Virus record (IMG/VR): IMGVR_UViG_2700989170_000009
DNA length: 15,828 nt
Direction: 5' to 3' (one strand)
Source: a virus
Taxonomy: Duplodnaviria; Heunggongvirae; Uroviricota; Caudoviricetes
The notes beneath the pieces are model-generated. The model made no database searches. It was not told where the DNA came from and worked only from the letters and a program-made list of their open reading frames with translations. Numbering within the stretch: the first letter of the stretch is position 1; every line of letters starts with the position of its first letter. A program made the translations under genes and the position numbers. Positions 9,185 to 9,210 of the stretch are shown here, piece by piece.

Positions 9185-9210
9185 GAACAACGTGGAACAA
9201 CCACGAACAA
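9185..9210 (+). promoter_or_regulatory. Three GAACAA hexamers at exact 10-bp spacing upstream of the capsid operon; candidate activator binding site
   Basis: cagt-GAACAA-cgtg-GAACAA-ccac-GAACAA, located between the upstream terminator and the capsid gene, about 215 bp before the capsid ATG. Confidence 0.4.

Follow-up and report, generated by a model that had tools for sequence, protein, structure and literature searches.

The 15,828 nucleotides of IMG/VR record IMGVR_UViG_2700989170_000009 (the window, below) are a phage-inducible chromosomal island (PICI) of the capsid-forming type (cf-PICI) that belongs to the EcCIEDL933 family (10.1101/2022.09.08.507074) and is inserted in Escherichia coli between roxA and phoQ. 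Upstream of its capsid gene are three copies of the hexamer GAACAA, one every 10 bp, and this array is clearly functional DNA. From comparison of sequences the three hexamers are rather likely to be operator sites for the small AlpA protein of the island, through which the capsid operon would be driven. An earlier note on this DNA had suggested that the phased direct repeats are bound by a winged-helix activator of the AlpA/Xis type acting on that operon, and conservation, sister arrays, the fold predicted for AlpA and its co-occurrence with the arrays are all in favor of the suggestion.

On the plus strand the three copies are at 9185-9190, 9195-9200 and 9205-9210, the exact 10-bp spacing being as first reported, and since the island genes are on the minus strand the unit reads TTGTTC in the direction of transcription. 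The array follows directly on a minus-strand terminator-like hairpin (9251-9234) and 9185 is 215 bp from the capsid ATG (8970, minus strand), which is the ATG annotated in near-identical islands; its placement just after the terminator of the upstream operon and about 215 bp from the capsid start had both been correctly described. The features of this region are as follows.

9210-9205, 9200-9195 and 9190-9185, minus strand: H1, H2 and H3, the proposed AlpA sites, each TTGTTC (GAACAA on the plus strand).
9211-9231, minus strand: the element TTTGTAAATTAT, corresponding to invariant columns 12-27 of an alignment of ten islands.
9234-9251, minus strand: intrinsic terminator of the upstream (replication and accessory) operon, a hairpin, with different hairpins at the same place in other lineages.
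9138-9165, minus strand: predicted weak sigma-70 promoter of the capsid and packaging operon, with TTTACC at 9165-9160, a 16-nt spacer and TATTCT at 9143-9138.
9109-9132, minus strand: hairpin where the leader is predicted to have its 5′ end, GTGGTGCCAG-GACG-CTGGGGCCAC.

The element TTTGTAAATTAT overlaps the T-tract of the terminator and contributes further TTGT cores at 9221-9218 and 9231-9228, so that the array comes to have five cores. GAACAA is not enriched overall, there being 14 copies in the window with 10.8 expected. As for the phasing, 2000 first-order Markov simulations of the window give an expectation of 0.003 per window for any hexamer three times at 10-bp spacing, and of 0.0045 for ACAA cores chained at least three times at 10 bp, of which 3 are observed. 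With such figures it is scarcely credible that the repeat is due to chance or is non-functional, for instance as part of a hairpin round the middle hexamer, on either side of which CGTGG and CCACG do stand in the window. Conservation has effectively refuted that already: in two of the islands retrieved for comparison (they are given L numbers here) the flanking inverted repeat is lost, being gtgg/cagg in L091 and gtgg/gtgg in L094, yet the hexamers are kept, and the hairpin was rejected for its lack of conservation there.

The identical three hexamers, with the same capsid module, are present in L002, which has a RepA-type helicase, and in the O157:H7 island L100, which has a DUF927 primase. 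Of 5,426 complete E. coli genomes, 426 have the 106-bp stretch 9130-9235 whole or in part, 360 of them to an extent of 80% or more, and it is unannotated in all 12 of the matches listed. L091, at the ilvG/comM site, and L094, at the cspD/clpS site and with a 69-aa AlpA allele, have capsid proteins 74% and 69% identical, respectively, to that of the lineage of the window island. Both keep TTTTGTAAATTATTTGT(T/G)CGTGGTTGTTCnnnGTTGTTC, while the upstream terminator is different in both and, in L091, the leader as well, and the capsid array is present, all told, in three diverged E. coli cf-PICI lineages with different insertion sites. In the alignment of ten islands, which come from six genera, the conserved block starts with invariant TTTGTAAAT..TT.GT, has TTGTnC, nnnTTC and nTGTTC at the hexamer positions with 10-bp phasing, and then, after 17 or 19 bp, TTTAC, 16 nt, TATnnT and a hairpin at the predicted RNA start. 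Among 83 related loci, 50 have TTGTAAA at a matching position 5′ of their capsid gene. A de novo search for phased 5-mers upstream of alpA and the capsid gene in 32 distant islands gave few matches. Conservation across homologous islands had been proposed as a check in the earlier note, and both hexamers and spacing are conserved in diverged lineages.

A promoter of consensus grade was not found near the array in a consensus scan for sigma-70 promoters, and to that extent the earlier statement that there is no obvious one nearby stands; it needs amending in that the weak TTTACC-16-TATTCT at 9165-9138, which is below the threshold of the scan, is conserved. Its TTTAC and the T/A columns of its -10 are invariant in the ten-island alignment, and in the window it is 19 bp downstream of the array. 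The start of the capsid operon is predicted to be near 9131, which would put the hexamer centers near -56, -66 and -76 and the extra TTGT cores near -88 and -98. This numbering is counted from the predicted start; in every lineage the distance from H3 to the -35 downstream of it is 17 or 19 bp. An alternative promoter with H3 as its -35 (TTGTTC-16-TATTTT) was ranked lower because TTTACC-16-TATTCT alone is conserved across genera. The leader of the capsid mRNA, about 160 nt, is highly structured (hairpins 9132-9109, 9108-9061 and 9007-8978, minus strand). Its first hairpin has a conserved GACG loop, with three of the four inner pairs changed on both sides in comparison to the GTGGCACTCA-GACG-TGAGCCGCCAC type; there is also a long hairpin with an 11-bp stem, and a further one, followed by T7, that hides the AGGA ribosome-binding site directly before the ATG. 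An Rfam search of the leader matched no family.

The array might instead be concerned with replication, as iterons of a second cis-replication region comparable to P4 crr. An AT-rich stretch adjoins it, and the type I iteron of P4 alpha, TGTTCACC (confirmed in the P4 record), resembles the promoter-nearest unit, TGTTCACT. The island, however, has its origin elsewhere.

10314-12062, minus strand (12062-10314): pri-rep.
10060-10313, minus strand: replication origin with TCTACC iterons, directly downstream of pri-rep.

The iterons of this origin are TCTACC(C/T), in both orientations around an AT-rich stretch of their own, and the identical capsid array accompanies three unrelated replicases (D5_N primase, RepA helicase and DUF927). 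Iterons of the P4 alpha kind were rejected on account of this separate TCTACC origin and the indifference of the array to replicase swaps, and a replication role of any sort for the hexamers is extremely unlikely.

A block consisting of TTGTAAAT plus hexamers accompanies the packaging module in all genera, whatever the AlpA clade, and this is what one would look for if the repeats were a packaging signal, either recognition repeats for the small terminase or a site associated with cos. That they have this function is highly improbable, as classical PICIs without this terminase also have the TTGTTC unit, in their att arms and ahead of alpA, and the block is at a fixed distance from the conserved -35/-10 pair. 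From synteny with cos phages of the HK97-like, HNH-dependent kind, the cos site itself is presumably between HNH and terS, at ~4560-4800. Runs of N (masked sequence) interrupt the packaging module at 4553-4595, 5607-5723 and 7235-7324, with one of them in the protease gene and another near the expected HNH-terS gap where cos would be sought.

Arrays of the TTGTTC type are in four places only, the att arm upstream of int (4 units), the spacer between int and alpA (3-6 units), the phoQ-proximal att arm (3 units) and upstream of the capsid gene (3 units), with the last confined to capsid-forming islands. Every match is inside an island when the window and 28-32-kb loci with their host flanks are scanned, the exact scan being for ACAA at least three times at 10 bp and the relaxed one for triples of hexamers spaced by 10 bp in which 15 or more of the 18 positions agree with TTGTTC, something expected 0.04 times in 20 kb. 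The recurrence of the array at two other loci of the window, which the earlier note had remarked on, is real with the modification that the units there are not exclusively exact GAACAA, and a fourth array is just beyond the window edge, upstream of int. In the window the features concerned are these.

14507-14552, minus strand: five-unit array lying after the stop codon of int and before alpA, in the opposite orientation to the other arrays; read as 14552-14507 it is ATACAA-CAACAA-CAACAA-GAACAA-GAACAA.
1579-1604, plus strand: array of three units, AAACAA-GAACAA-ACACAA, in the att arm on the phoQ side, with the att core ~110-140 bp away.
1541-1561, plus strand: doubled GACTACACC/AACTACACC motif with a 12-bp period, a probable Int arm-type site.
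1459-1469, no strand assigned: att core, ~AAATATGTCC, located at the stop codon of phoQ, where the island ends.
14599-15828, minus strand: P4-type tyrosine integrase (Int) with an Arm-DNA-bind_3 domain.
14036-14224, minus strand: alpA, encoding the 62-aa PF05930 winged-helix protein that is the proposed binder.

The consensus of 54 units is TTGTTC-(C/G)-(A/T)-(C/G)-G, or TTGTTC-S-W-S-G, with a bias in that the TTGT core was what defined the units. When the int-alpA array is compared between islands, ACAA is fixed and the spacers are variable. Between this array and alpA, at ~14412-14384 on the minus strand, there is a hairpin followed by TTTGTAT that may be the int terminator, its stem having compensatory changes in L091, and a conserved candidate for the alpA promoter, TTGCCA-17-TGaCACAAT, is at 14314-14286 (minus strand). 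At 14566-14581 a perfect 16-bp palindrome, CAGTATGCGCATACTG, separates the stop codon of int from the int-alpA array; L001 has this palindrome and the L091 lineage does not, and a dimeric regulator may use it as an operator. The att core, ~AAATATG(T/C)CC, has its second copy between int and roxA, and island-free E. coli genomes match the window only up to ~1469. In another E. coli island, L093 (GCA_964037825.1), an inverted copy of the replication module comes after the packaging module and its hexamer array, an att-arm-type array is at 7808-7785, and the island looks rearranged or truncated.

Both att arms have the doubled AACTACACC and then 3-4 hexamer units at 10 bp, in the same order and orientation (the doubled motif is at 1541-1561, plus strand, in the window and at 14725-14745 in L003, ~80 and 130-150 bp from the core), and the arrangement is also found in Kosakonia and Serratia. 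With the TTGTTC unit in both arms within ~140 bp of the core, and keeping in mind that the P'1-P'3 arm sites of phage lambda are likewise tandem at ~10 bp, the hexamers could be thought of as the Int arm-type sites, or those at the capsid operon as a vestigial att arm resulting from recombination between islands. Either is very unlikely. The motif that co-varies with the N-terminal domain of Int is the different, doubled one of 12-bp period, present in both arms, and its architecture is that of the annotated P4 arm repeats, TTGGGGGCAT, and of the CP4-57 repeats, TAGGCCCA, doubled 12-bp motifs being general upstream of P4-type integrase genes. Among the fetched islands its type follows the clusters of Int N-terminal domains and not those of AlpA. 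It is GGTGTAGT in L010, L091, L094, L070 and L085, with GGTGCAGT in L076 of the same Int cluster, TGTATAAA in L082, L084 and L013, GGTGTATCAA in L064 and L065, and GTGGGGTAC in L089, and all the while the TGTTC(CAG) site beside it is constant across Int clusters. L084 is a natural swap. Its AlpA is 83-90% identical to that of L064, L065, L086 and L089, while its Int N-terminal domain and doubled motif are as in L082 and L013; here the doubled motif goes with Int rather than AlpA, and therefore belongs to Int.

The doubled 12-bp motif is, from these comparisons, probably the Int arm-type site. The TTGTTC unit is unchanged across Int clusters and is found in addition in the alpA and capsid regions, which are kilobases away from the att core. 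Near 9185-9210 a doubled AACTACACC is absent, the sole near match being a single copy with one mismatch on the other strand, and with no doubled motif beside the hexamers a vestigial att arm was rejected. The alpA/intA region of CP4-57 in E. coli K-12 was dropped as a test case, its AlpA being too divergent and TTGTTC arrays being absent, with only another doubled 12-bp motif there. In the HE-PICIs there is a doubled motif, TGTATTGC, whose geometry the doubled motif of the window island matches, and the att-arm binders were explicitly left unassigned (PMC10111431). In the attP of this island family, probable Int arm-type sites can now be told apart from the proposed sites of the recombination directionality factor (RDF), a point left open in that study.

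AlpA belongs to the winged-helix excisionases (RDFs) and is known as the master activator of Gram-negative PICIs. In the window its gene is directly downstream of int and the product belongs to PF05930 (E=5e-18). The structural model (pLDDT 87) has the topology helix-helix-strand-strand-helix, and its best match is the GIsul2 excisionase 8c3t (TM 0.79-0.86, 39% identity), which also matches by sequence (E=2.6e-6). The MerR-type winged helix-turn-helix (HTH) regulators CarH and GlnR come next, with RdfS, Pukovnik Xis and TorI lower. A literature search on PDB entry 8c3t gave nothing relevant. Int and AlpA are the only proteins encoded in the window that can be detected in all islands with arrays, including those of Kosakonia, Serratia, Enterobacter, Winslowiella and Erwinia, while the window-type ribbon-helix-helix (RHH) protein, the PerC-like protein and other small open reading frames (ORFs) are undetectable in many. 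The RHH protein, also entertained as a binder beforehand, is an unlikely one because the window version is absent from most islands that have the arrays. Such elimination, and the position of the hexamer units beside the arm-type sites of either arm, make AlpA the best candidate.

Work with relatives of the island points in the same direction. The AlpA proteins of EcCICFT073 and EcCIEDL933 are the same protein as that of the window island (92-100% identical); AlpA autoactivates PalpA and is required for induction, and its overexpression results in excision, replication and capsids (PMC6092414; 10.1101/2022.09.08.507074). For EcCICFT073, activation by AlpA of its own promoter and the dependence on int of the excision and replication that follow overexpression were described (PMC6092414). 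The fragment in the PalpA reporter (pJP2038) used there is AlpA-responsive (PMC6092414), and its primers map exactly to L007:13934-14389, with the six-unit homolog of the int-alpA array, 13992-14047, inside. The Pint reporter primers of the same study have no match in the fetched loci because the EcCICFT073 island is at a different insertion site. Overexpression of alpA alone was used for making EcCIEDL933 capsids (10.1101/2025.02.11.637232), which agrees with a direct or indirect action of AlpA on the capsid operon. In the searchable literature we found no description of AlpA DNA sites or of the capsid-operon promoter in these islands.

That the hexamers are real binding sites for something other than AlpA is unlikely, yet merits consideration. 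Another island protein (the YlcI/YnfO-type RHH protein, Ash, Icd or the PerC-like protein), a late activator of the helper phage or a host response regulator of the OmpR/PhoB type would be the possibilities. AlpA binding at the array is, after all, deduced from sequence, and response regulators of the OmpR/PhoB type also use direct repeats, with a period of 10-11 bp. To our knowledge, though, the TTGTTC unit is unlike the TorR, PhoP, PhoB and OmpR boxes in sequence or period. Helper phages induce alpA through an unidentified factor (PMC6092414), and hexamers upstream of the capsid gene in distant cf-PICIs that are unlike the att-arm sites would fit a separate, promoter-specific factor. On the other side, AlpA is always detectable where the arrays are, which often cannot be said of the RHH, PerC-like and other small proteins, the arrays of both att arms adjoin Int arm-type sites, the position expected of an RDF, and overexpression of alpA without a helper is enough for EcCIEDL933 capsids (10.1101/2025.02.11.637232). 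The unrelated AlpA of Pseudomonas aeruginosa is a Q-like antiterminator of more than 140 aa with a single GGGACG element (ABE) between -35 and -10 (PMC9371919); antitermination of this type was rejected for the island, whose 62-aa AlpA has an excisionase fold and only the name in common.

Several observations do not sit easily with AlpA as activator of the capsid operon. Islands from a more distant AlpA clade have TGTTTAC, TGATTAC or TGTTTCC as hexamers upstream of the capsid gene while their att arms keep TGTTCCAG, and hexamers of the TGTTTAC/TGTTTCC type were sought elsewhere in the same distant-genus islands and not found. In those lineages, therefore, the capsid promoter may be served by a factor other than the one bound in the att arms. 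In classical PICIs that have the same AlpA, no array precedes the packaging genes. The int-alpA array is missing from the islands in which AlpA is the 69-aa allele (L006 and L094), and where it is present it is inverted, with ~190-240 bp and a conserved hairpin separating it from the best candidate for the alpA promoter downstream. The capsid promoter matches consensus at 8 of 12 positions, few enough for the consensus scan to miss it, and the start is a predicted one.

If AlpA is nevertheless the binder, its molecules would be arranged head-to-tail on one face of the DNA, bound to the 10-bp units TTGTTC-S-W-S-G. At the capsid operon an AlpA oligomer on the three units and the two weaker TTGT cores, at ~-56 to -98, would recruit RNA polymerase to the weak promoter, or stabilize it there, in a class-I-like manner. 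Transcription, ended by the terminator of the operon before, would thus start afresh and turn on the genes for capsid, protease, portal, HNH and terminase. In the att arms AlpA on the hexamer units may shape the excisive intasome together with Int on the doubled motif, leading to excision, and AlpA on the int-alpA array may serve for autoregulation of alpA. One small protein would thereby couple induction, excision and capsid production. The idea of one 62-aa excisionase-type protein and one 10-bp unit being put to two uses, excision architecture in the att arms and class-I-type activation at the capsid operon, is tentative, and we give it somewhat less than an even chance.

Helically phased arrays of excisionase or activator sites are already known from TorI, Cox and Xis, and what is new here is a candidate operator for PICI AlpA. 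P2 Cox is an RDF that acts on arrays of direct repeats of ~10-bp period at att and at promoters, and it activates P4 PLL. The 'type 2 repeats' in the P4 record, CCACTTAAAG, are three at a 10-bp period. With a satellite promoter activated from upstream phased sites this is the closest functional precedent, with the differences that Cox is from another protein family, recognizes TTAAAG-N-CA and is encoded by the helper phage rather than the satellite. Xis filaments (lambda Xis on X1-X1.5-X2, Pukovnik, L5 Xis and RdfS) have winged-helix monomers head-to-tail on direct repeats about one helical turn apart; they are mainly architectural at one att arm and have not been described as activating a late operon from such an array. 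The TTGC-N6-TTGC repeats of lambda CII at PRE, PI and PaQ, also of 10-bp period, are comparable to TTGT-N6-TTGT in the island, and CII activates weak promoters and links int expression to the developmental decision, but it is a tetrameric HTH protein, not an RDF, and has its repeats on either side of the -35. TorI, the KplE1 excisionase, has five sites in attL, three of them at a 10-bp period with the core GTTCG, and regulates intS (PMC2951348). The three are 8-bp sites with 2-nt gaps and their core resembles TTGTTCG of the island. Like AlpA as proposed here, TorI is a small winged-helix RDF with sites beside Int arm-type sites and with a part in transcriptional regulation. Unlike it, TorI represses, is not known to activate a structural-gene operon and has all its sites in one arm; moreover it is only a distant structural relative of the island AlpA (TM ~0.6) that is not found by sequence.

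The arrays supply a concrete candidate for the AlpA operator, TTGTTC-S-W-S-G with a 10-bp period, and with it a candidate regulon of four sites, namely both att arms, the upstream region of alpA and the capsid operon. Should the proposal be correct, capsid-forming satellites tie induction, excision and structural genes to one DNA-binding filament without resort to a late activator of the helper phage, and the three-hexamer position, kept across six genera with lineage-specific sequences, is a record of co-evolution between AlpA specificity and the late promoter. As cf-PICIs spread across species by means of their own capsids, capsid production would then be tied to induction without helper late functions, and there would be a handle for turning cf-PICIs on or off.

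As to the rest of the window, host phoQ is at 1-1461 and the remainder is the island, read on the minus strand. The order on that strand is int, alpA, small ORFs with the divergent RHH gene (13353-13532), pri-rep, three small ORFs, the terminator and then the packaging genes for HK97-type capsid, prohead protease, portal, connectors, HNH, TerS and TerL (4214-2553). The first of the packaging genes is the following.

7813-8970, minus strand: HK97-type major capsid gene, first of the packaging operon, with an in-frame TGA at 8143-8145.

The TGA changes W276 to a stop in comparison with the intact gene of the near-identical island L001, and therefore this copy of the island probably cannot make its own capsid, barring read-through of the stop. 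Just upstream of the terminator, at 9274-9435 on the minus strand, a 53-aa ORF encodes a short PerC-family protein, and relatives have a 90-aa version of it and extra small genes before the array. A second phased array, TGTCAC four times at exactly 10 bp, is at 1971-2008 (plus strand), downstream of the last conserved 93-aa ORF. It is kept, with variable spacers, in L002, L005 and L006, which have different packaging modules, and, ACAA/TTGT-type arrays aside, is the sole chain of a tetramer in at least four copies at 10 bp in any of the loci.

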